Assembly (NCBI GenBank): GCA_037310415.1
Contig: CP147780.1
Location: 2,496,001 to 2,560,000, forward strand
DNA from: Candidatus Atabeyarchaeum deiterrae
GTDB taxonomy: Archaea; Asgardarchaeota; Atabeyarchaeia; Atabeyarchaeales; Atabeyarchaeaceae
Direction of reading: 5' to 3'
DNA length: 64,000 nucleotides
Shown here one piece after another: positions 39,004 through 56,669 of the stretch. Below the pieces are notes generated by a model. It was not told the DNA's origin. It saw only the letters and a list, made by a program, of their open reading frames with translations, and made no database searches. How positions within the stretch are numbered: the first letter of the stretch is position 1; every line of letters starts with the position of its first letter. Position numbers and translations under genes: made by a program.

Positions 39004-42000
39004 CTAGTCACGTCTGTGGAACCGCCTCTTGGAATTCGCTGCCTTATCTCCTCTTTTGGTGCTTTGGTTGTCTCTGTTGTTGAGTGAATCCAATTCTCTC
39101 TGTCTGGCTCTGAGCACGTATGTTGCTGACATCAGACATCCTGAACCTATTAGAAGGCTGAAACCAAGAGGTGAAAAGATGGCGTCTAAGATGGAGGTTT
39201 CCCAGCTCTCACCGGTTCCGTCATTATTGTCACCATTGTTCGAGGTCGAGCGCGGGGTAGCTTCCACCAACAGGACCTCCGACGTTGATCCAGAATAGTA
39301 CTCGGTTGTTTGGAATTCGCAGTAGATGGAATAGTTGCCATTCTCATTCACTGTGAATTGCGCCGAGGCGGAGCCATTGAGCCTCGTTGTTGATAACAGA
39401 GTTGTTTGCTTCTCTGAAGGACCCAGAACGACGAATGTTATGCTCGAATTTGCAACCGCTTTGCTACTAGTTATTTCTGAGAGCTGTGCTCCAAGTTGCA
39501 GAATAGAACCAACGCATATCGGATCCAAGGCAACATGATTTGACGAGATCGCGAGTCTGGTGGCTGTCTTATTGACATAGATTGCTTTTGACGAATTTGC
39601 AGGGCTAAGTGTACGAGAGCCGTCGAAGATGATGCTAATACAGTATGCGGCTGAGCAGTACGGTTTCCAAGCGAAGGCGAGTTGACCTGACGAATTTGAT
39701 GATGCGGTTTCCGACAGCGAGCTATTCACATAGAGACGAAGGCTGGCTCCGATGATAGGTGTCCAACTTGCATTCAGCGCATGAATTGATGCTGAAACGG
39801 AAGTGTTTGAAGTTGTGAGATAGCAGACGTCGACAGGAGTAGTTATGACTAGATCAATCAGGGTCCTGTTATTCGATATTGTCACCGTAAGCTGGGTGAG
39901 ACTGGTCTGATATCTTTCCTTGGAACATCTGAAAGTCACGCATTGCGATCCTAGGAGAGAGTTATCATATGGAACACTGATGTTTGAAGCGTACTTTCCG
40001 CTGCTGACCGGCGTTTCAAAGCATGAATAGGCGTGGGTTCCGAGCTTGATTCTCGCTGTCGCACCAGTCATTGGTGACAGGAATTTGTCATCGGTCATTG
40101 TAAAATTGGCGGCATAGCAGAGTCCTTGTTGCATTTCACTAGGTGCACTGACTGAGTGGATGGCAGTTTTTAGTTGCTTCGCTGCAACCCAGGTGTAGTT
40201 GCAGTCACTGAGGATCTCCACTGACATTCTCGTTGTATCAAGCCGGTAATTGACCTTGTCATTATCCTCGAATGCTCCGTCAGGTTTCTCAAAGCTCTTC
40301 ACAAACTTGACTAGTGATGTCTTGTTGATGATGGAGAGTTCGTTGAGTGCTTGCAGTCCCTTGAAGGAGTAATAGCTGTCAACTAGATTTGAGAATAAGC
40401 TGGACTGGAGGAATGCAGTTGTTTTTCCGTAGTCCACCTGCGACAATGCATTCAGCAGCTTTAGTGAGGCTAAGGACATAAAGGTGGCTTCAGCTGGAGA
40501 GTAGGGCTCCATCATGTAGCTGTCATCATTGAAGGAGCCTGTCGACGGATCGTAAAGACTCATTATTCTCTGTACTGTAAGAGCCGTGTCGGTTAGGTGA
40601 CTTGTGAATTCGTTTGTGAAGTTTAGGAAGGCAGCTAGGTTCCTCATACAGTTGAGGGCGTGATATGTGTAGCGCAGTCCTGCGGTTAGGTTACTTGCAG
40701 GTGCACTGGAGAAGCTCTTGTAGTAGCCACAATAAGACCCTGTGGTGACTTCGCACTGGCAAATTTCGTTCCAAATCTGCAATGCATGGCTATTTATCCA
40801 GCTATTGCGGTCGAGGTTCAGTAGAGAGGTTGTGGCTAGATCTGTTAGTATTACACCGGTTCGACCTCTTTGAATGGACGAGTATTCAAAGGGCTCTTCC
40901 ACGATGAAGCTACTGTAACCGTCCGAGCTTGCAGGGTAGCTGATTCTGAGCCATTCAAAACGGGCCGAAATATCGCTGTATGAATAGATTATTGAGTTGA
41001 ACAAATGGGTCGATTCTGCTGAATCTAGGAGACCGAGGTTGCAGAGAGTTGATATCGCGTTAGTGGTCTGCCAGAGGTTAGACAAAGTTCGTGGGATATT
41101 TGAGAAACCATACATTGGCTCTGGAGAAAGACATCTATTCAGAAACTCGATGAACCCTCCGATGTCCCTAATCATGTTGGTGTAGCCTATCAGTTGTAGC
41201 CCAAGAATCACTGGATAGCAGTCCCTGACTTCATCTACAGCTTCATCTGTGCAATTAGCTTCGGACCATCCTCCGTCTTTGAACTGGACTGCTGTCAGAT
41301 AATTGGCCACAAGCCATTGATCAATGTTCTGCGTTTTGCCAAGTATGTAGAGGCTTGCAATGGAGTAGCCTGTTCCATCATTAACTAGGTTACGTTTGTG
41401 AAAAATGTGCTCATCATAGAATATCCCTTTTGATGGTACGTATCCATTCATCAACCATTGCTCAGCGATTATTCGATTCGCTGAGTCCAACGCGCCAAGC
41501 AATTTGAGACTAGTTAGTGCCATGTAAGTGGAAGTAGCGAAGGATATGCCGGCGGGTGCATTAGAAAACCCACCATAGTTGGCAGTATCCCATTGGTTCT
41601 GGTTCTGGCAGGATAGAAGGTAGTCTACGACTCGAGTTCTGTTGATAGTATTGAGGCTTCCCGCAGCATTCAATCCTTGCAATGCCCAATAGGTATTCGT
41701 AACATCCCTCGAAGTGTCTCCACGGAAGCGGACGAATCCATCCCCAAGCTGGCACGATCGAAGGTATTTTGAAGTCTTCGTTACATTGATCTTGCCCAAT
41801 GCGCCAAAGCTGGAAAGCGTGAGGAGGGCCATCCCGGTCTCGACCACCGTGGGTTCGGACGACTGTGTAGAATATCTTTGAGGGGACCAGAATGCCCCTT
41901 CTGTGAACGAGTAGCAGTAGTCTACGAGCCAGTCAGCCAAGGCTGAGGTGTTGATAACGTCAAGTCTCCCAACAAGTTTCAATGACTCGCAAGCGTAATA

Positions 42001-42960
42001 CGTTGCGGAGATCTCGGGTTCAAAGTAGTCACCGAATCCACCTGTCCAATATTCTGACTCGGATGCGTTTAGACTCTCAGCTTCATTTAAGAAGTCATGA
42101 ACTAGTTCAAGATCTGTATACCCACCCATCCACTCAACAGTATTTGCAAAGAGATGTTTGCCATTTTCATTCAGAGTTGATGGATCCTGGAATGCCCACC
42201 AGAAGACTCGCCCATTACTTCCACGCGAACTGTAGAGGGCTCCGACGACCGATTCAGTAACTCCTACAACAATACCAAAACTGTAGAGATGGTCAATCGT
42301 GTTCGCTGGATATGATTCAACGCTTACGGCTTGACAGAACATCTCAATCGAGTGAGGCGGGCCAAATCCAGATTCGATAACCTGGTAAGGGGAAGTGAAC
42401 AGCGAGTGGCCATATCTATCAGAGGTTTTCTGAATAATCCCTGTGATGGCTACTCGACCCATAGCTTGGGTGAAGTTAGAGATTCTATCTATAATACCGT
42501 GTGACGCGCCGAGAAGTATTAGAGGCTGCGCCGTTTCGCCGAGTGATTCAGCTTCCTGCAGCGTTATCTCTTTCCCATTAGTTCCTCCACAAGAACTATC
42601 CAACAAGACCAGATTGTAATTCCGCATTAGACTAGAATTTCCGATTGCTGCTTGAATCGGGAGAACTGCCATCTCGTATCCGTAGCTTGTGAGAAACAGA
42701 CTCCAATCATTTGCAAATGAATGTGCTCCTGTTGTAGGGTCATATAAAACGAGGAGCCGGATACTGGAAGCAAGATAATAGAAATCGCCCGAAGGTGAAG
42801 GCAATGAGGAGGAATAAGGCTTGGCGAGTTCATGGAGCGATCTCCCCGACATGGTTGGCAGTCCGGCAGCCTGCAGCCCCGCAGTCAAAGCGCTCCATGA
42901 TAAGAGGATCAGTAAAGAGACTGCCATCTTTGAGGTGTGACATGTTGCGTGGCGGTGCAT
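39004..42960 (-). CDS. Secreted, membrane-anchored protein with prenyltransferase/squalene-oxidase-type repeats and Ig-like domains
   Basis: Signal peptide; repeats such as DYLLSCQ...GGFSNAP...TYMALTSL and YLTAVQFKDGGWS; Ser/Thr-rich Ig-like domains; C-terminal TM. Confidence 0.8.
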   Translation of the reverse strand: MHRHATCHTSKMAVSLLILLSWSALTAGLQAAGLPTMSGRSLHELAKPYSSSLPSPSGDFYYLASSIRLLVLYDPTTGAHSFANDWSLFLTSYGYEMAVLPIQAAIGNSSLMRNYNLVLLDSSCGGTNGKEITLQEAESLGETAQPLILLGASHGIIDRISNFTQAMGRVAITGIIQKTSDRYGHSLFTSPYQVIESGFGPPHSIEMFCQAVSVESYPANTIDHLYSFGIVVGVTESVVGALYSSRGSNGRVFWWAFQDPSTLNENGKHLFANTVEWMGGYTDLELVHDFLNEAESLNASESEYWTGGFGDYFEPEISATYYACESLKLVGRLDVINTSALADWLVDYCYSFTEGAFWSPQRYSTQSSEPTVVETGMALLTLSSFGALGKINVTKTSKYLRSCQLGDGFVRFRGDTSRDVTNTYWALQGLNAAGSLNTINRTRVVDYLLSCQNQNQWDTANYGGFSNAPAGISFATSTYMALTSLKLLGALDSANRIIAEQWLMNGYVPSKGIFYDEHIFHKRNLVNDGTGYSIASLYILGKTQNIDQWLVANYLTAVQFKDGGWSEANCTDEAVDEVRDCYPVILGLQLIGYTNMIRDIGGFIEFLNRCLSPEPMYGFSNIPRTLSNLWQTTNAISTLCNLGLLDSAESTHLFNSIIYSYSDISARFEWLRISYPASSDGYSSFIVEEPFEYSSIQRGRTGVILTDLATTSLLNLDRNSWINSHALQIWNEICQCEVTTGSYCGYYKSFSSAPASNLTAGLRYTYHALNCMRNLAAFLNFTNEFTSHLTDTALTVQRIMSLYDPSTGSFNDDSYMMEPYSPAEATFMSLASLKLLNALSQVDYGKTTAFLQSSLFSNLVDSYYSFKGLQALNELSIINKTSLVKFVKSFEKPDGAFEDNDKVNYRLDTTRMSVEILSDCNYTWVAAKQLKTAIHSVSAPSEMQQGLCYAANFTMTDDKFLSPMTGATARIKLGTHAYSCFETPVSSGKYASNISVPYDNSLLGSQCVTFRCSKERYQTSLTQLTVTISNNRTLIDLVITTPVDVCYLTTSNTSVSASIHALNASWTPIIGASLRLYVNSSLSETASSNSSGQLAFAWKPYCSAAYCISIIFDGSRTLSPANSSKAIYVNKTATRLAISSNHVALDPICVGSILQLGAQLSEITSSKAVANSSITFVVLGPSEKQTTLLSTTRLNGSASAQFTVNENGNYSIYCEFQTTEYYSGSTSEVLLVEATPRSTSNNGDNNDGTGESWETSILDAIFSPLGFSLLIGSGCLMSATYVLRARQRELDSLNNRDNQSTKRGDKAANSKRRFHRRD

Positions 42961-43181: not shown

Positions 43182-44243
43182 CTACACTTCATTCAATATT
43201 TCTTTCTCATCCATGTGGTGGTGACAAATTGGGCAGTAGTCCTTCACGTGCAACCATTCCAACAAGTGGGTCTTGTGACTGGCGTTGCCGCAGTAGGGAC
43301 ACCACATGATCTGGTCACTTCTGTTCAATTCCAAGCCACAAACCATGCATCTTCCCATCCTAGCAGTCGTTCTGCGCTGTCTACCCCTAGCGACAGCTGA
43401 GGCAACAAGGGCTCCTCGCCTTTTCGCTCCAGTTCCTATTGATGCGCTTTCGCTAACGCGAGGATTGGCAGTTCCTGAGTGAACCTCCAAGTTTGCCCCG
43501 CAGTTCCAGCAGAAATTTGCAACTGGAAGGCGCGAGTTTTCACCACAGTATGGACAGAAATTCGCGGATGCTCTTGGTGTGATAGGCTCTTCAAACTCAT
43601 TTGAGTGTTCAGCTTCATCTGGTTCTTGAACCCCGAGAGTTGGAACTAACGTGTCAATTTCCTCTTGACTCAGGGAAGTTGTGTGACTTGACCGTCTCCC
43701 CCCCACTCTACCCGATTGAATGTTCCTTACCAGTCTTCTCCTTCTAACACCCAGAAACACGATCATCACAAGTGCCACTAGGAGCACGATGGAAGTTGGC
43801 ACCAGAACGCCGCCAAGAAACGGCGCGGTGTACATTGTGACTACTATAGAGTTATCTTGGTTGACTACAACGGTAACATCTTTGGTTACATCAGCGTACC
43901 CTTCGTACGAGACCTGGATCGTGTAATATCCAGGTAATACGCTCGCAAAATAGGCGCGCCCTTGGTAGTCCGTATAACCGTTCAACGCGGGTTGACCTCC
44001 GGGTGTCGCGATTGATATAACATGGGCTAAAGAGAGACCTTGTCCATTCTTGTTAACAACGACGACATTCAATCCGCCCGTTGTTGCGTTATAATTGGCA
44101 TTGAAAACGGTTTGCTCGCGGAAAGCATAGCTCTCACGAGGCGACTGATTCGCGCTGCCATTAGCAGCCACAAATGGTGTCATAGCCACTGTTAATAGAA
44201 TCAGAAAAATGAACAATGTTTTCCTGCTAACAGTTGCAGTCAT
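43182..44243 (-). CDS. Single-pass membrane protein: carboxypeptidase-regulatory-like ectodomain, cytoplasmic Zn ribbon + RING-like domain
   Basis: Signal peptide; TDYQG..F..VLPGYYTIQVSYEGY; TM + RRRR; CPYC..CWNC; C-x2-C-x12-C-x2-C-x4-H-x2-H-x10-C-x2-C. Confidence 0.8.
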   Translation of the reverse strand: MTATVSRKTLFIFLILLTVAMTPFVAANGSANQSPRESYAFREQTVFNANYNATTGGLNVVVVNKNGQGLSLAHVISIATPGGQPALNGYTDYQGRAYFASVLPGYYTIQVSYEGYADVTKDVTVVVNQDNSIVVTMYTAPFLGGVLVPTSIVLLVALVMIVFLGVRRRRLVRNIQSGRVGGRRSSHTTSLSQEEIDTLVPTLGVQEPDEAEHSNEFEEPITPRASANFCPYCGENSRLPVANFCWNCGANLEVHSGTANPRVSESASIGTGAKRRGALVASAVARGRQRRTTARMGRCMVCGLELNRSDQIMWCPYCGNASHKTHLLEWLHVKDYCPICHHHMDEKEILNEV

Positions 44244-44408
44244 TTTTTCCCCCCGGAGTTTTTGAACTCGTTTCCCATGCAAGGACACACTATATCAATC
44301 AATGAAAACGTTCCGCTTTTATATTTTGTCTTTCTGCTAAAAGAGGAGAACTCAAGACTGAAGCAAGGGTCTGCAATCTGATGAAAATGAAGATCTAATT
44401 TCTTGTCA

Positions 44409-46043
44409 CTACTGCGAAACTTTTCCCCTAGGCAGGGTTGCCTCGGTTTCATCTACATGTGCTCCGTTCTCGCATTCCTTGGTTGCGAATGTGTCGCTTC
44501 TCTTAAGCACTAGAGATGCCAACCCTTTGCCGCTAACCTTTCCCAGAGAGGATGCCAGATCTCTTCTGACGATGCGTCGCACATCTGGAAGTCGACCCCT
44601 AACGACTGAGAGTTTATTATCTGAGTCTAAGGACGACAAATTCTCGCTGAGCACTCTTGATATGCTTTCGGCCACAGGCGGCTCACCTAAGATTGTGAGG
44701 CTGACTTCAAAATAACCTGAACTTTCTGCTTCCTTCAGGTGTTTGAACGTATTCTTTGCCTCTTCCGTTCTTCTTGTCGCGTCTGCCACAACATTTTGAC
44801 GTTCTGGTGGCAATATCCTGTTCTTTGATCTCCGAGTGAGTATTCCACTCTTGAATTGCTCGACGACTTGGCTCATGGCATATTGGTAGGTCTCGCCTGT
44901 TTCAACGAGTTCCTTGCAAAGAACACTTTCAGGTAGGGGCTTTACGTGAAGGATAACCGCAAAGTTCTTCAGAGTCCTTTGGTTCGAGGTCAGTTTATCA
45001 AGTTCATCGACGATATTGGCGCTATCAGTTTCACTTGTTTGTTTTGGGCCAATTAGATGAATCAAGCGTAGTCTGGTGGTCCTTCCTGAATTGCCTGAAG
45101 TGAGTACCTTGACATTGTAGCCATCACTCTCGATATACTCAACGTCCTCGAGCTTGGTTGAGAAAGGAGCCATGAGCACCTTCTTAGCGATGGTGTTGTC
45201 ATCTACTGGTCTTACTGAGAGCGATGTAAGACCAGCTGCTTTGATACTATCGGACAGTGTTCGGGAGAAGTCGTCAATAATCGCTCGACACTTTCGATAG
45301 TCCCGTCCCTCGCAAGCTGATGAAACAAAGAAGAGCGGAGCGCCGTCTTGGAAAAACATGTCTAGGCTTGTCTCTATACCTAGTTTTCTCGCCATGATCA
45401 ACGGCCTCATCAACCTCTTAGTCATCTCTTTGCCGTTTCCACAAGGGACAAGAAGTCTTGTTTTGCTGGCATGTTGTTGCCTGACTTCTATGAATTTTAG
45501 CACTTTGAAGCCTCTTCTTCCTGCACCGTATACTATGTGACCTTCCTCTAGGCCCTTAGGTAGCAGGGCGTGTCCTTTCAATCTCCAATGATGCTTGAAA
45601 CCAGTTTGGCTTGACAAGAATCTGCCAATATGCTGCCTTTTCCGATAGATGACATAGACTATAAATGGAAGTGACAAAGCAGACAACTTCATTGGGACGC
45701 TCATCGGGTATGGAATCGGCGCGGATACGACCATATTGAAGATGAATAGTAGTGGAACGACTGTGATGAAAAGAAACTTCGTTAATCCTGATAATGGTCT
45801 TAGGCGATCTAGTCTCGTCGTGAGGACGAGTGAGACCGCTAATACAAGAACAGCGGTCACAATCTGGGATAGCAAGCTCAAACCGCCAAATGTCGCCATT
45901 GACCATCCAAGAACCTGTAGGAATAGGTAGACCGCGACAATGATGAAGAAGAAACTCAATAGCCATCTATTGAAGAAAAGGCGCAACAAGCCCATGATGA
46001 ACACCACCATCCGCCTAAACGCTGTATAAGCAAGCATCCTCAA
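44409..46043 (-). CDS. Hypothetical protein with N-terminal TM bundle and large soluble domain
   Basis: 4-5 hydrophobic segments, then an alpha/beta region with a coiled hairpin; no NTPase motif seen. Confidence 0.65.
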   Translation of the reverse strand: MRMLAYTAFRRMVVFIMGLLRLFFNRWLLSFFFIIVAVYLFLQVLGWSMATFGGLSLLSQIVTAVLVLAVSLVLTTRLDRLRPLSGLTKFLFITVVPLLFIFNMVVSAPIPYPMSVPMKLSALSLPFIVYVIYRKRQHIGRFLSSQTGFKHHWRLKGHALLPKGLEEGHIVYGAGRRGFKVLKFIEVRQQHASKTRLLVPCGNGKEMTKRLMRPLIMARKLGIETSLDMFFQDGAPLFFVSSACEGRDYRKCRAIIDDFSRTLSDSIKAAGLTSLSVRPVDDNTIAKKVLMAPFSTKLEDVEYIESDGYNVKVLTSGNSGRTTRLRLIHLIGPKQTSETDSANIVDELDKLTSNQRTLKNFAVILHVKPLPESVLCKELVETGETYQYAMSQVVEQFKSGILTRRSKNRILPPERQNVVADATRRTEEAKNTFKHLKEAESSGYFEVSLTILGEPPVAESISRVLSENLSSLDSDNKLSVVRGRLPDVRRIVRRDLASSLGKVSGKGLASLVLKRSDTFATKECENGAHVDETEATLPRGKVSQ

Positions 46044-49068: not shown

Positions 49069-50769
49069 TTATTTAAGCTCATCTCTTGCTGCTAACGTCT
49101 CCATAGAACTTAAGATGTGTCTAGCAGGCGACCTGCGCCCAAGTCCCCAGTAATTGGAGAAGCTCAGAGGCTTTACCTCCACTACTTTAACTTCTTCAAG
49201 TCTGGATTTTCTCATTCGTCGCACTATGATGATGCATGCTATCGCTATGACTGTAATTATTGGAGAAGCAATCACCAACGCCAATGTCAGGTCGAAATAG
49301 ATATAGTTCCCTCCACCATTGTTCGCGACTGCAAGATTTCCCGCGTAGTCGTATGCTTCGATATAATACTCGACCGATGAAGAGTGTTGAGGGGGTATTA
49401 CGGCAGAGTATATGTCGTCGTCTCCGATGGGAGTCATTGCAGTTCTTAGCCATGTCTTTCCGCTATCAGATGAATATACTAGAGTGGCATTCTTGACGGC
49501 GCTTGAACTGCTTCCAACATCAGTTATGGAGACTTGGATAGTCGCCGGCATTGATGTCGGCCAAAGAAACTGAATAGCGCTACTTATATCGATCTTGGGT
49601 GGGGTATTGTCCTGACTAATCAAGCTGATTGATACACGGAAGGACTGCGAGTACTGAGCCAAGATCGTTATGTTTATGTTATTTGAATAATCTAGAAGCT
49701 TGTTTGAGCTCGGGCTAACTGTGAAGGGAGCTTGTGAAAGTGTGCGATTAGGATGCTGCACCTGCACTATTCCTTGACCTGATTCACGGGTCTCATCACA
49801 ATAGAGGATCAACGTCCCATTTGAGGGCAGATTTACATCATATGGGAAATCTCTTTGTCTGTCCTCAACCAAATAGTATGTTTTAGTAGTGATTGGAATC
49901 TTTATTGCTGTGAAGTTAGTTCCTTGAATCTCAAGCGGATCAAGAATGCCGATGAGCATTCTCCCGACAAGAGTCGAATTTGCAGAGATCCATCCTAGTG
50001 CGATTCTGCTCCATGATGTCATCTGCGAAGGAAGCCAAGCTCCAGTCGCCATCAGATCCCACGGACCCACATAGGTGTCAGGACTGCTCTTGTACAAGTC
50101 TGGTAATCCCAAGAGGTGCCCGAATTCGTGTGCAAATATCCCCGCTGGGTCCGACTCTGCCACAATGGACGCTTCCTGAATGACAACACCGTCATTTGTC
50201 TGTAACCATATGCCGCTCCAAGTGGCTGACCAAATATCGTTTGGGCTATGTGATGATGCTTGATCGTTGCCTGAGTGTACAACCACTACTTTGTCGTAGT
50301 CGGCAAAGTTGACATAGGTGTCGACATTTTTGACGACATCCCGTACCAGCCACCAACTATAGTCGTCCGATCCGTACTGTATTGTGGTGTTGCTGAGGTG
50401 CACCCAATCAGTCGTGTTTCCAGTTATTGTCATCTTGTCGTATGATACTTCTTCGTAGTATGACCTCATATCCGTAAAAACGGTGGAGTTTATCTGCGAA
50501 CGAGTCTTGGAGTAAGGCACGTCAGAGAGTTCAGCAAGTATCACAATCACGCTATGGTTCTGAATAGGCGGTGCGCCGTCTTGATGAATCTGCTGGTTGG
50601 TCCACACTTCATTCAAGGTCTTTCCTGATTGGGCACTATTCAACATGGCTCCTGCGATAGGAGTATACGCGGCTGCAACATAATATGCAGGAATTATGAG
50701 AACCGCTATCAGTACGCCGATCTTGAGAAAACTCTTCTGTCCGGTCTGAGCTGCGGGATTGTTCTTCAA
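49069..50769 (-). CDS. M6 (immune inhibitor A)-family metalloprotease, membrane anchored
   Basis: YYEEVSY, VVHSG, AHEFGHLLGLPDLY, WDLMATG, YYLVEDR; signal peptide and C-terminal TM. Confidence 0.9.
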   Translation of the reverse strand: MKNNPAAQTGQKSFLKIGVLIAVLIIPAYYVAAAYTPIAGAMLNSAQSGKTLNEVWTNQQIHQDGAPPIQNHSVIVILAELSDVPYSKTRSQINSTVFTDMRSYYEEVSYDKMTITGNTTDWVHLSNTTIQYGSDDYSWWLVRDVVKNVDTYVNFADYDKVVVVHSGNDQASSHSPNDIWSATWSGIWLQTNDGVVIQEASIVAESDPAGIFAHEFGHLLGLPDLYKSSPDTYVGPWDLMATGAWLPSQMTSWSRIALGWISANSTLVGRMLIGILDPLEIQGTNFTAIKIPITTKTYYLVEDRQRDFPYDVNLPSNGTLILYCDETRESGQGIVQVQHPNRTLSQAPFTVSPSSNKLLDYSNNINITILAQYSQSFRVSISLISQDNTPPKIDISSAIQFLWPTSMPATIQVSITDVGSSSSAVKNATLVYSSDSGKTWLRTAMTPIGDDDIYSAVIPPQHSSSVEYYIEAYDYAGNLAVANNGGGNYIYFDLTLALVIASPIITVIAIACIIIVRRMRKSRLEEVKVVEVKPLSFSNYWGLGRRSPARHILSSMETLAARDELK

Positions 50770-53475: not shown

Positions 53476-54723
53476 TCATGTCTGCAGATTTGCACCACAC
53501 TGTGGACAATAGTTCACATGAAAGCCTTTTAAAGCCAAGCCACAATATGGACAGAAGCTGGGAGATGTACGAACCATTACTCCCCTTCCATCCTCGCTTT
53601 CCCCGAGAGTCCGATCTTCCCTGTTCTGAAGCACTGGGCGGATCTCTGCACCCCGAGCGCTGCTTCTTCTTCCCAATGTCTTTACCACTGCGCCGATGAG
53701 AAACAATCCTGCAAGCAGACCTCCGCCGCCGATTATCAGAATGATCACAGGGTCGACAGGAAATGCGATGGGTCCAGTATCAGGCGATGGCACTTTCTCA
53801 ATAATGAATCCATACCAGAATTGACTACCGGAATAAATTGTGAAGGGGTGGACTTGGCTGTAGTATCCATCTTTAGAGCATTCAAATTGATAGAATCCCG
53901 TCAATATATTGTTGAAATAGACGGCCCCCCATGAATCTGTAACATTCGACAGCGCGGGTTGACCGAATGGTTCGAAACTTGAGACAACGACAACACCAGC
54001 GACAGGTGCATTTGTGACCGAGTCTACGACCCAGATAGCCAACGACCCATTTGTCGGGTTCCATAACGATTCTGCCAATCCAAGGACGTCGTATGCAGTA
54101 CAGCAAATGCCTCCTTGTTGGCATGTTATGTCTATGACCTTTCCGCTCAAGTACTGGGATGCGCCCTTCATGACCAAGTCATTTGTCAGGTTGCGATTCC
54201 ATGAATACCAATGGCTGAGTTGTGTTCCAATAAGGAAGTACTTGTCGGCCGCAGTGTCAGTAGGCTGACTGCTCTGCAACCTGTAGTGCAAGTACAAGAT
54301 AGGTTGTCCTGGAGCTGTTATTGTCAGCACTGTTTCATGCCAATCCGAATCGTCAATTGACACAATTGCGAGCATAGCGCCTTGGAATCGGCTGACATTG
54401 GAGATCGAGTACGACAGTGGCTGGAAGAAGTAGTCATAGTAATGATTGTTCAACCCAGAGCATAATCCCTCATATTTCGAAATCCAGTCATCTGAATCAG
54501 CAACCAAGGGATGATTCACTACTGTCCATCCAGTGAAATCATCTGTCTCAAAGTCGCCATTTATTATTGCGTTTGTGCCATTGCTTGGTGAAGAATGATA
54601 TGCTGGATATGCCAACGCACTGCCGATGCTGGTACCTGGCTTAGCGATTGGGACAGGAGTCGCCAAGGCTACCAGCAGGACAGCAATGATTAACCCACTG
54701 GCCAGAATTCTCTGCTTTCTCAG
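53476..54723 (-). CDS. Single-pass membrane protein: beta-sandwich + carboxypeptidase-regulatory-like ectodomain, cytoplasmic Zn ribbon
   Basis: INGDFET..TGW; TDSWG..F..ILTGFYQFECSKDGY; TM; CPYC...CPQC; signal peptide is complete only if started at CTG 54723 or ACG 54732. Confidence 0.78.
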   Translation of the reverse strand: MRKQRILASGLIIAVLLVALATPVPIAKPGTSIGSALAYPAYHSSPSNGTNAIINGDFETDDFTGWTVVNHPLVADSDDWISKYEGLCSGLNNHYYDYFFQPLSYSISNVSRFQGAMLAIVSIDDSDWHETVLTITAPGQPILYLHYRLQSSQPTDTAADKYFLIGTQLSHWYSWNRNLTNDLVMKGASQYLSGKVIDITCQQGGICCTAYDVLGLAESLWNPTNGSLAIWVVDSVTNAPVAGVVVVSSFEPFGQPALSNVTDSWGAVYFNNILTGFYQFECSKDGYYSQVHPFTIYSGSQFWYGFIIEKVPSPDTGPIAFPVDPVIILIIGGGGLLAGLFLIGAVVKTLGRRSSARGAEIRPVLQNREDRTLGESEDGRGVMVRTSPSFCPYCGLALKGFHVNYCPQCGANLQT

Positions 54724-54821: not shown

Positions 54822-56669
54822 TCAGGAATGGCGGATGATTAGTCTGCGCCCAGTATGCTCATCTTTGAGGTCTCCTTCGTTCAAATGGCTACCGCACATC
54901 GGACAGTAGTTCCTCAAATGGATCCACTGAAGCAGATGAGCTCTGTGCCCAGCATTTCCACAGTGTGGACAGTACAGGATCGGCTCACTTGATTCGACAT
55001 TTGAGCCACAGACCATGCATTTTCCTCCAACACGAGGTTCGATCTTTGCTCTCTCAATAGGTTTTATGGTCGACCTAGGAAACGTTCCCAGCCTTACCCC
55101 GCAGTTGAAGCAATACAATGAGTCAGGATGTGAAACCTCGGCGCCACAGTTGTGGCAATATCTCGGAGTGGAAATGGGAGCCGCCTCTCCGCGGACAGAT
55201 TCAGTCTCTTGTCGAAGGTCCCTTCCGATCGGATAGTCACGCATCGACGCTCTTACTTGACGACGTCGTATCGTCGAGACAACACCCATGATTGCGATCA
55301 GAAAGACTGCCCCTCCCGATATCAATAGAAAGTTGAAGTCAAAAGTGCTACCAGGATTCCCATCACCACCCAGATTACCACCGGTAAGCGGGGAAAGAGC
55401 AGTACCTATGCAGTAGACAGAATTTGAACCTACTGCCACTACGATTTCCTGTCTGCCATCTGCATTCAGATCTGCGAAGGATGGAGGCGCGCTTAAGTAA
55501 TCACCCAAATAGAATTTCCACTCAAGGCCATAAACCGTGTCACCGCAGTAGAGATTGTTATCAGAGCCTGCCACCACAACTTCGTTGCGGAGGTTTCCGT
55601 CCATATCGGCAATCCCGGGAGAGAAACTGTAGAGATAGGAGTCCGCCATAAAAAGATATTTCACTCCCTCGATCCCGTCAAGGAACAAGACGCTGGATCC
55701 TCCTGAGGGAATCACAACTTCCTGTTGGGAATCTGTGTCGATATTGCCGACCGCAGCGATTCCTCCAGATGGCGATTTGTAAATAGACTTTACTGAACCA
55801 TTGCCATTGAGACAGTAGATGTTGCCATCGTAAGATCCCACTACTATTACTGGCTTTCCACTTCCATCTCCATTGAAAACGACTGGGGGAAAAGTATAGT
55901 AGTTGTAATAGCTTGGTCCTTGGCTGCGACTCCAGTTCAAAGCGCCTGTTTCATTAAGACAGTAGATTGTGGTGGTTACCTGTCCATACTGGTCATACGC
56001 ACTTGAGAATAACACTATCTCAGGTTTGCCATCCTCGTTTAAGTCGGCGACGACAGGCGGCGAAAGACTGCCTCCTGCATTGAACTTCCACTGTAGTCCC
56101 CCCGTCCCATTTAAGCAGTACAGTGTATAGTTGTCCGATTCTGCAAATATCTTTTGGCCAACGCCTCCGCCAACTTTCGCTATTACCAGAGCCGGAGTGA
56201 TTGGACTTCCCGTCGCAAAGCTCCACTTCAAGCCACCAGTACTGTTCAGGCAGTAGACATACGAATTATAGGACCCAAGCACTATTTCCTTCTGTCCGTC
56301 ACCGTCCACATCTGCAGCCACAACAGAGGAAACGGAGTCTGGCACGCTTTGGGACACCCATTTCAAACTTCCATTATTGCCTAGCCAGTAGAAACCATAG
56401 TAACCGCCCTGACCGAAAAGGATCTCCAGCTTTCCATCATTGTCAATGTCATCGACGCAAGGTCTGCAGTTGAAGTAGCCCCCATATGTCTGATAGCGCC
56501 ATTCTATTGTCGGCACAATATAGCCATATACGAAATTTCGTTGGGTATGATTGTCCACCATCAACTTCGTAATGCCAAGTTGGCTTGTTCTAGCACTAGA
56601 CGGACTGCTTATCAATAGGGAAATAATCACTACCGCTCCGATGGCGAACAATCGATTTCGCGTTTTCAG
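54822..56669 (-). CDS. Single-pass membrane protein: FG-GAP/PQQ-type beta-propeller ectodomain, Zn ribbon + RING-like domain
   Basis: Repeats ADVDGDGQKEIVLGS...YCLN..G.LKW; TM; CHNC..CFNC; same RING spacing as the 43 kb gene; CTG start at 56669 inferred. Confidence 0.82.
   Translation of the reverse strand: MKTRNRLFAIGAVVIISLLISSPSSARTSQLGITKLMVDNHTQRNFVYGYIVPTIEWRYQTYGGYFNCRPCVDDIDNDGKLEILFGQGGYYGFYWLGNNGSLKWVSQSVPDSVSSVVAADVDGDGQKEIVLGSYNSYVYCLNSTGGLKWSFATGSPITPALVIAKVGGGVGQKIFAESDNYTLYCLNGTGGLQWKFNAGGSLSPPVVADLNEDGKPEIVLFSSAYDQYGQVTTTIYCLNETGALNWSRSQGPSYYNYYTFPPVVFNGDGSGKPVIVVGSYDGNIYCLNGNGSVKSIYKSPSGGIAAVGNIDTDSQQEVVIPSGGSSVLFLDGIEGVKYLFMADSYLYSFSPGIADMDGNLRNEVVVAGSDNNLYCGDTVYGLEWKFYLGDYLSAPPSFADLNADGRQEIVVAVGSNSVYCIGTALSPLTGGNLGGDGNPGSTFDFNFLLISGGAVFLIAIMGVVSTIRRRQVRASMRDYPIGRDLRQETESVRGEAAPISTPRYCHNCGAEVSHPDSLYCFNCGVRLGTFPRSTIKPIERAKIEPRVGGKCMVCGSNVESSEPILYCPHCGNAGHRAHLLQWIHLRNYCPMCGSHLNEGDLKDEHTGRRLIIRHS

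Follow-up and report, generated by a model that had tools for sequence, protein, structure and literature searches.

The 64,000-nucleotide stretch of the Candidatus Atabeyarchaeum deiterrae genome analyzed here (contig CP147780.1, positions 2,496,001 to 2,560,000; hereafter, the window) encodes, on the minus strand at 43182-44243, a protein of 353 amino acids in which a signal or anchor segment, an extracellular domain, a transmembrane helix, a zinc ribbon and a RING finger follow one another in this order. We propose that this protein is probably a membrane-bound ubiquitin ligase (E3) because the RING finger at the end of its tail is the one also found in the E3 of the organism's own ubiquitin operon. 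The open reading frame (ORF) extends over 43182-44288 when read from a GTG codon; the 353-residue product, followed by a stop codon, starts from the ATG at 44243, and the metagenomic ortholog P0002, which is 92% identical, has the same start methionine. The genome is a single contig of 2.76 Mb, and among the named relatives of the protein, the closest belongs to Atabeyarchaeia, a group of Asgard archaea.

The N-terminal 27 residues (44163-44243; all features of the gene lie on the minus strand) form a signal peptide or signal anchor, with a basic n-region (R7, K8), a hydrophobic core at residues 10-27 that AlphaFold2 (AF2) models as part of a helix spanning residues 7-29, and a V-A-A motif ahead of N28. 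Cleavage might occur after this motif; in either case, the domain that follows is located outside the cell. This domain, residues 56-137 (43833-44078), is a transthyretin-like beta-sandwich: residues 58-137 score 43.7 bits with the Pfam family CarboxypepD_reg (PF13620), whose cut-off is 32.3 bits, AF2 models a beta-sandwich at residues 56-136 with a predicted local distance difference test score (pLDDT) of 80-89, and the Foldseek matches include the transthyretin-like domains of carboxypeptidases N, D and M, teneurin and the Sulfolobus S-layer protein SlaB. Judging from the profile match and the model, the ectodomain is a generic cell-surface fold without a known ligand site. The outside part of the protein also contains three N-x-S/T sequons (N28, N32 and N52) at which it could be glycosylated, all of them in a short low-complexity stretch before the beta-sandwich.

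A hydropathy scan places the transmembrane helix at residues 142-166 (43746-43820; the AF2 helix covers residues 148-176), and it is followed immediately by an RRRR stop-transfer, positive-inside signal at residues 167-170 (43734-43745), within which R169 shows 90% or higher conservation among 11 homologs. The net charge of the 15-residue flanks of the helix is -1 on the outside and +6 on the inside. The cytoplasmic part begins with a disordered linker (residues 173-227), which leads to a zinc ribbon of the form C-x2-C-x11-C-x2-C at residues 230-248 (43500-43556), and a second disordered linker (residues 253-295) separates the ribbon from the RING finger; the AF2 pLDDT is below 50 in both linkers. 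Each of the four cysteines of the ribbon (C230, C233, C245 and C248) reaches a conservation of 90% or more in the 11 homologs, and the Pfam scores are just below the cut-offs, namely 26.2 bits for DZR (cut-off 27.3) and 24.0 for Zn_ribbon_3 (cut-off 27). An NZF-like ubiquitin-binding role was considered for the ribbon and dropped, given the central spacing of x11 instead of x10 and the lack of the T-F dipeptide of the NZF motif. Thus, the CarboxypepD_reg match, the transmembrane segment with its RRRR flank, the charge bias and the AF2 model all point to a single-pass type I membrane protein with a beta-sandwich outside and the ribbon and the RING inside, which is the topology advanced in a preliminary description of the gene that was made from the sequence alone.

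The RING finger occupies residues 299-340 (43224-43349), with the spacing exactly as previously described, C-x2-C-x12-C-x2-C-x4-H-x2-H-x10-C-x2-C, and includes an LLEWL helix and a CPxC motif. It is followed by a short C-terminal tail (43185-43223) in which alignment A1 yields the helix consensus H-L-x-E-x-E-L after the last cysteine and AF2 places a helix at residues 54-57 of the domain model. The eight cysteine and histidine ligands of this C4-H2-C2 variant are invariant in 18 aligned family members, and their spacing is compatible with a RING. When the finger alone was modeled by AF2 from an 18-sequence alignment, the result was a beta-beta-beta-alpha layout with a pLDDT of 89.4. All top 50 Foldseek matches for this model in the PDB are RING or U-box-type domains, nearly all of them from E3 ligases, with TMq of 0.65-0.83 for all but two weaker rows and root-mean-square deviations of 1.1-2.5 Å, with outliers at 2.8 and 5.2 Å; among these are 3lrq, EL5, Rad18, RNF24, RNF165, TRAF6, APC11, gp78 and components of GATOR2/SEA. 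The VIA search, which is independent of Foldseek and covered 48,161 representative chains, likewise has a top 50 made up entirely of RING or U-box-type domains, including HRD1, the Pex RINGs and RNF13 (5zbu, Z 5.7), a ligase of the PA-TM-RING (protease-associated domain, transmembrane helix, RING) type; the Z scores of 5.6-7.7 are unremarkable on their own, and it is the uniformity of the match list that carries weight.

At the sequence level, the finger is closest, among solved structures, to RNF24 (6e-5) and EL5 (7e-4), in both cases to the RING-H2 domain, and V301, W330 and P338, which are located on the presumed E2-binding face, line up with residues of both. Compared to RNF24, the Atabeyarchaeum protein has an asparagine in the position of the fourth-ligand histidine and an extra cysteine three residues upstream, and therefore a CPxCG knuckle in place of C-x-H; furthermore, the sixth ligand is a histidine. 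With C-x2-C at ligands 3 and 4 and histidine at ligand 6, the protein departs from the C3H2C3 signature of RING-H2. The folding of the finger as a RING is nevertheless supported by the structural models and the sequence matches taken together.

Does the organism possess the machinery with which such a finger would work? A cluster at 0.34-0.35 Mb of the genome encodes EAP30/Vps36, Vps28, UEV-Vps23, a JAB protein, a small RING protein, ubiquitin, a ubiquitin-conjugating enzyme (E2) with the HPN...Cys signature, and a ubiquitin-activating enzyme (E1). The earlier suggestion of ubiquitylation in an archaeon is thus matched by the gene content of the host, an Asgard archaeon in which ubiquitin, E1 and E2 are all present and the set is made complete by JAB. 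The small RING ORF (G000:C1:347724-347912), which encodes 63 amino acids from its ATG, lies directly upstream of the ubiquitin, E2 and E1 genes, and its finger has the same spacing as that of the window protein, with 23 of the 42 core residues identical. The two genes are 2.19 Mb apart, the operon being at 0.35 Mb and the membrane protein gene at 2.54 Mb. The ubiquitin gene itself (L005:8098-8334, plus strand, which corresponds to G000:C1:348097-348333) ends in ...TEGGR, that is, the Gly-Gly terminus with one extra arginine, so that the product would need C-terminal processing before activation; the JAB/MPN gene is located 1.5 kb upstream of it in the same cluster. The E2 and E1 genes are at L005:8422-8895 and L005:8900-9949.

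The implicit treatment of the gene as a singular oddity does not stand: the genome contains 12 paralogs, of which it is one, and the family is represented in 143 of the 201 sampled Asgard genomes. Only 3.6e-6 matches to the finger spacing are expected by chance, as computed from the six-frame cysteine and histidine frequencies of the genome itself, against the 12 found, all of which are near the C-termini of long ORFs. These comprise the small operon copy, three soluble proteins (one with TPR, one with HEAT-like repeats and one with the ribbon only), five proteins with one or two N-proximal transmembrane segments and three type I, receptor-like proteins, namely the protein discussed here, another one in the window at 54822-56651 and a third one whose gene lies immediately upstream of the window. 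The Prok-RING_1 cut-off is exceeded by four paralogs that have this spacing, with 38.7, 31.6, 29.4 and 40.4 bits; with zf-RING_2, the operon copy passes at 27.7 bits and another paralog scores 27.0.

Several members and relatives of this set deserve separate mention. The product of the gene at 54822-56651 (minus strand, 609 amino acids) consists of a signal or anchor segment, an FG-GAP/beta-propeller ectodomain, a transmembrane helix, an RRR tract, a ribbon and the same C4H2C2 RING; the third receptor-like RING protein (425 amino acids) is encoded at G000:C1:2493253-2494527, and the paralog with HEAT-like repeats (669 amino acids) at G000:C1:1583817-1585823. The 396-residue protein encoded at 53476-54666 (minus strand) consists of a large ectodomain, part of which resembles CarboxypepD_reg weakly, a transmembrane helix, RR and a C-terminal FCPYCG...CPQCG ribbon, right after which it ends; it has the same surface module and ribbon as the protein at 43182-44243 and lacks the RING; the surface module can thus exist on its own.

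Beyond this genome, a profile of the finger retrieved 620 cluster representatives at E <=1e-10 and 3,756 at E <=1e-3 from 1.84 billion proteins. All homologs that are named in the source records, whose organism names are the basis of the family taxonomy, are from Asgard archaea (Njordarchaeum, Atabeyarchaeia, Freyarchaeum, Baldrarchaeota and "Asgard group"), and many carry precomputed matches to PF14446 or PF13639. The 208 retrieved homologs with the exact finger spacing, on which the family statistics are based, include 39 type I-like proteins, 23 with one transmembrane segment after a large N-terminal region, 79 with N-proximal transmembrane hairpins or anchors and 67 soluble ones, so that about two thirds are anchored in the membrane. 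In 154 of the 208, a CxxC..CxxC ribbon is found within 110 residues upstream of the RING. Nearly all homologs retain the E2-contact positions, in line with the preliminary description, which read the motif as typical of an E2-binding face: valine or isoleucine two residues after the first ligand in 206 homologs, the helix tryptophan in 193 (with tyrosine or phenylalanine in 14) and proline immediately after the seventh ligand in all 208. The ectodomains are varied and include CarboxypepD_reg, FG-GAP and PQQ propellers, NosD beta-helices, PPC, fibronectin-III, delta-60 repeats and SBP_bac_5; among the soluble members, there are proteins with TPR, HEAT or arrestin domains. In two of the latter (P0093 and P0198), the ribbon-RING cassette is combined with arrestin N and C domains, an arrangement that recalls the eukaryotic arrestin-related ubiquitin-ligase adaptors. 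Public records label the relatives as "zinc ribbon domain-containing protein" or "hypothetical", and the family is therefore effectively unrecognized.

The phyletic pattern of the finger closely follows that of the E2. Of the 201 Asgard genomes, 143 have the finger and 143 a UQ_con E2; 142 have both and 57 neither. The single genome with the finger and without E2 (G125) is 77% complete, and the single one with E2 and without the finger (G142) owes this status to a weak match (3.2e-5). The tallies for the finger and the E2 are equal in every family of genomes other than f6 and f12, in each of which they differ by a single genome. Both are absent from f5, f11, f16, f22 and f26; the largest family, f6, with 43 sampled genomes, has no RING copy and one weak E2 match; and in the mixed family f19, G104, the sole positive genome, has both. 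A small copy of the finger is encoded within about 1 kb of the E2 in at least 33 genomes, which belong to several families. The number of copies of the RING variant per genome ranges from 1 (in f2, with genomes of 1.3-1.4 Mb) to 29-32 (in G012, which belongs to the same family as the present genome, and in G117 from f12), which implies lineage-specific expansions.

How does this protein relate to the ubiquitin ligases that are already known? RING E3s encoded in Asgard and Caldiarchaeum ubiquitin operons have been tested, the family of the domain overlaps with Prok-RING_1 of Pfam, and transmembrane RING ligases are known in eukaryotes. E3 activity has been shown for the srfp of Caldiarchaeum subterraneum, in which the same displaced C3/H4 was noted together with an extra cysteine, "C3B" (PMC5654768); in Helarchaeia, a cascade of E1, E2 and the operon RING E3 ubiquitylates UEV-Vps23 in vitro (bioRxiv 10.1101/2023.07.25.550441). 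The window protein shares with the srfp-type operon E3s the extra cysteine that makes up for the displaced C3/H4, the conserved tryptophan and the CPxC motif, and on these sequence features it belongs with the archaeal srfp-type RINGs rather than with the PA-TM-RING family. Unlike srfp, which consists of about 60-90 amino acids and is encoded beside ubiquitin, E2 and E1, it has 353 residues with a signal or anchor segment, an ectodomain, a transmembrane helix and a ribbon, and is encoded away from the operon. The parallel previously drawn with RNF43/ZNRF3 and GRAIL holds for the order of parts. Like the PA-TM-RING ligases (RNF13, RNF128/GRAIL, RNF43/ZNRF3 and the plant RMRs), the archaeal protein has a signal peptide, a small beta-rich ectodomain, a single transmembrane helix and a cytoplasmic RING-H2-like finger; unlike them, it has the C4H2C2 set of ligands and an additional zinc ribbon between the membrane and the RING, and no PA domain was detected in its Pfam search at E up to 1. 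The likeness is thus only architectural. We found no description of archaeal RING proteins with a signal peptide, an ectodomain and a transmembrane helix in the literature searched, which excluded the 2011 paper of Burroughs, Iyer and Aravind that defined prokaryotic RING families.

Taken together, the sequence, the models, the paralogy with the operon RING, the co-distribution with E2 and the analogy with characterized ligases suggest that the protein is probably an active RING E3, anchored in the membrane and part of the ubiquitin system of Asgard archaea, that works like the PA-TM-RING ligases without being one of them. Under this scenario, the RING would dock the single canonical E2 of the genome, charged with ubiquitin by the operon E1, and would promote the transfer of ubiquitin to lysines of its own tail or of nearby membrane proteins. 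The ectodomain, the transmembrane helix or the ribbon could bring or select the neighboring membrane proteins, as in the PA-TM-RING ligases; the mark would be read by the UEV and other proteins of the sorting complexes ESCRT-I and ESCRT-II, or by the proteasome and Cdc48, and could be removed by the JAB enzyme. We infer E2 binding and ligase activity from the RING fold and its relatives; the choice of substrates, and a part of the ectodomain in that choice or in the sensing of ligands, would follow from the same scenario. In complex predictions for the RING (with alignment A1) and the E2 of this genome, which were run without controls, the three runs gave 0.49, 0.01 and 0.02, with the mark set at 0.32, and we count this result neither for nor against binding.

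Several observations weigh against this interpretation. With C4H2C2, the ligands depart from the canonical sets C3H2C3 and C3HC4. The Pfam scores of the finger are below the cut-offs, with 19.2 versus 27.3 bits for zf-RING_2 (PF13639), which the operon copy passes, and 20.9 versus 29.1 for Prok-RING_1 (PF14446), which the four paralogs pass, the latter alignment covering profile positions 6-32 of 54 and only the initial half of the finger. An arginine or lysine after the last cysteine is present as a linchpin in many active RINGs, and in the 208 homologs this position varies (G in 80, R in 36 and H in 25), with a histidine in the protein under study. The archaeal RINGs for which there is biochemistry are small soluble forms only, whereas this one is bound to the membrane, and the WDR59-type RINGs of GATOR2, which the finger resembles, are regarded mainly as structural or assembly elements. 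The co-distribution with E2 overstates the support because genomes that share ancestry are not independent. Finally, there is no conserved neighbor: in the sister genome G012, the surroundings of the 32%-identical ortholog have no further gene in common with the 36-60 kb portion of the window, so that no conserved partner can be proposed.

The alternative that fares best is the extracellular sensing put forward in the preliminary description, namely that the protein is a ligand-gated receptor E3, in which the binding of a ligand to the beta-sandwich would alter the oligomeric state or the conformation of the protein and so switch the RING on or off, with ubiquitylation as the readout of a signal from outside. 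The topology is receptor-like, and there are members of the family with bona fide ligand-binding ectodomains, such as beta-propellers, NosD beta-helices and the ABC-type solute-binding domain SBP_bac_5, which is fused on the outside to the ribbon-RING module in P0177 (817 amino acids, from Atabeyarchaeia-1), P0039 and P0182; going by their domain content, E3s that truly sense a ligand would best be sought among the SBP_bac_5 fusions. The ectodomain of the protein at 43182-44243, however, is a single transthyretin-like module of about 80 residues that is typical of structural surface proteins and has no known ligand site, the disordered linkers between the membrane, the ribbon and the RING offer no obvious path for conformational coupling, and no neighbor is conserved with the G012 locus. 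Because of this combination of a generic ectodomain, disordered tail linkers and the absence of a conserved neighbor, we regard ligand gating as unlikely for this particular protein.

The main true rival to an active E3 is a RING without catalytic function, that is, a zinc-stabilized interaction or assembly module of the WDR59 or BARD1/Bmi1 type that would tether a surface protein to a cytoplasmic complex without activating the E2-ubiquitin conjugate. The finger shares with the RING of WDR59 (7uhy_D; residues 315-330 of the archaeal protein) the central C-x2-C-x4-H-x2-H spacing and the EW helix, in the form CxxC-G-x3-H-x2-H-x2-EW, and GATOR2/SEA chains are among its fold matches in both searches (7uhy_D with Z 6.4 and 8adl_A with Z 6.7 in VIA; 9oti_D and 8adl_C in Foldseek). 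The lack of a conserved linchpin residue after the eighth ligand is compatible with this possibility, and so is the presence of 12 paralogs for what appears to be one canonical E2. The GATOR2/SEACAT RINGs (human WDR59 and WDR24; yeast SEA complex) differ from the protein considered here in that they terminate coat-like proteins built of beta-propellers and alpha-solenoids that do not span the membrane. More to the point, the three E2-contact positions are kept in more than 92% of the 208 homologs, which is unusual for inactive RINGs, the operon member is of a type shown to be active as an E3 in two archaeal systems, and the family is essentially confined to genomes with E2. On balance, a purely structural role appears rather improbable.

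A still narrower function is conceivable for an active RING, namely, that it mainly ubiquitylates the lysine- and arginine-rich tail of its own polypeptide for removal or turnover rather than other substrates. RING E3s commonly auto-ubiquitylate, the tail contains long disordered stretches, and the paralog-like protein encoded at 53476-54666 has the ectodomain, the transmembrane helix and the ribbon and lacks the RING. Nevertheless, varied ectodomains on one conserved ribbon-RING cassette would suit a recognition repertoire better than 12 self-destructing proteins, and we consider self-tagging as the main function decidedly improbable; in any event, since an active E3 would still be needed, this is a sub-case of the favored interpretation. 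Lastly, the notion of a PHD or another non-RING treble-clef finger that would act at the membrane as a binder of peptides, lipids or nucleic acid, a reading for which one could cite the PHD-like middle spacing C-x2-C-x4-H-x2, a weak partial match to the DPF3 PHD over the first half of the finger only (E 0.16) and weak scores of zinc-ribbon Pfam models on the finger region, is rejected as most improbable, in agreement with the original assignment as a RING, given that the sixth ligand is an invariant histidine and not the cysteine of the C4-H-C3 signature, that no PHD family of Pfam matches at E up to 1, that the LxxW-x6-CPxC helix and loop is a hallmark of RING-H2, and that the top 50 of both fold searches consist of RING or U-box-type domains throughout, the only PHD chain there being PHF7, itself an E2-binding E3, although a fold may be missing from such lists without being excluded.

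The genes around the locus reveal no operon logic. The neighbors include genes for a 1318-residue prenyltransferase-like surface protein, a 544-residue membrane protein, a Rad51/KaiC-like ATPase and a ParA/MinD-like ATPase. The gene directly upstream (44409-46043, minus strand) encodes the 544-residue protein, with several N-terminal hydrophobic segments, a large cytoplasmic part and no Pfam match at E <=1e-4. The gap between the RING gene and the downstream gene is 221 bp; at 39004-42960, also on the minus strand, is the gene for the 1318-residue surface protein, which combines a prenyltransferase-type alpha-alpha toroid domain with a C-terminal transmembrane anchor and a basic tail. A 566-residue M6 (immune inhibitor A-like) metallopeptidase with the HEFGH motif and, again, a C-terminal transmembrane anchor and a basic tail is encoded at 49069-50769 (minus strand). 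This region of the window is rich in genes for cell-surface proteins.

A broader and more tentative possibility concerns the family as a whole. Asgard archaea have ubiquitin, E1, E2, small RING E3s and ubiquitin-binding ESCRT-I/II proteins. It is conceivable that they also possess a large and modular repertoire of receptor-like membrane E3s, in which the ribbon-RING cassette is combined with exchangeable ectodomains of the transthyretin-like, propeller, beta-helix and solute-binding types, and which marks surface proteins for UEV and ESCRT, the protein described here being one such ligase; such a repertoire might be the forerunner of the ubiquitin-dependent down-regulation of receptors and of PA-TM-RING/RNF43-type signaling in eukaryotes. 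A family of membrane-spanning RING proteins with varied outside domains would supply the missing "cargo-marking" step of ubiquitin-ESCRT sorting and would offer concrete, expressible candidates for that step. If this is true, the receptor-E3 architecture that is widespread in eukaryotes was already present in their archaeal relatives.

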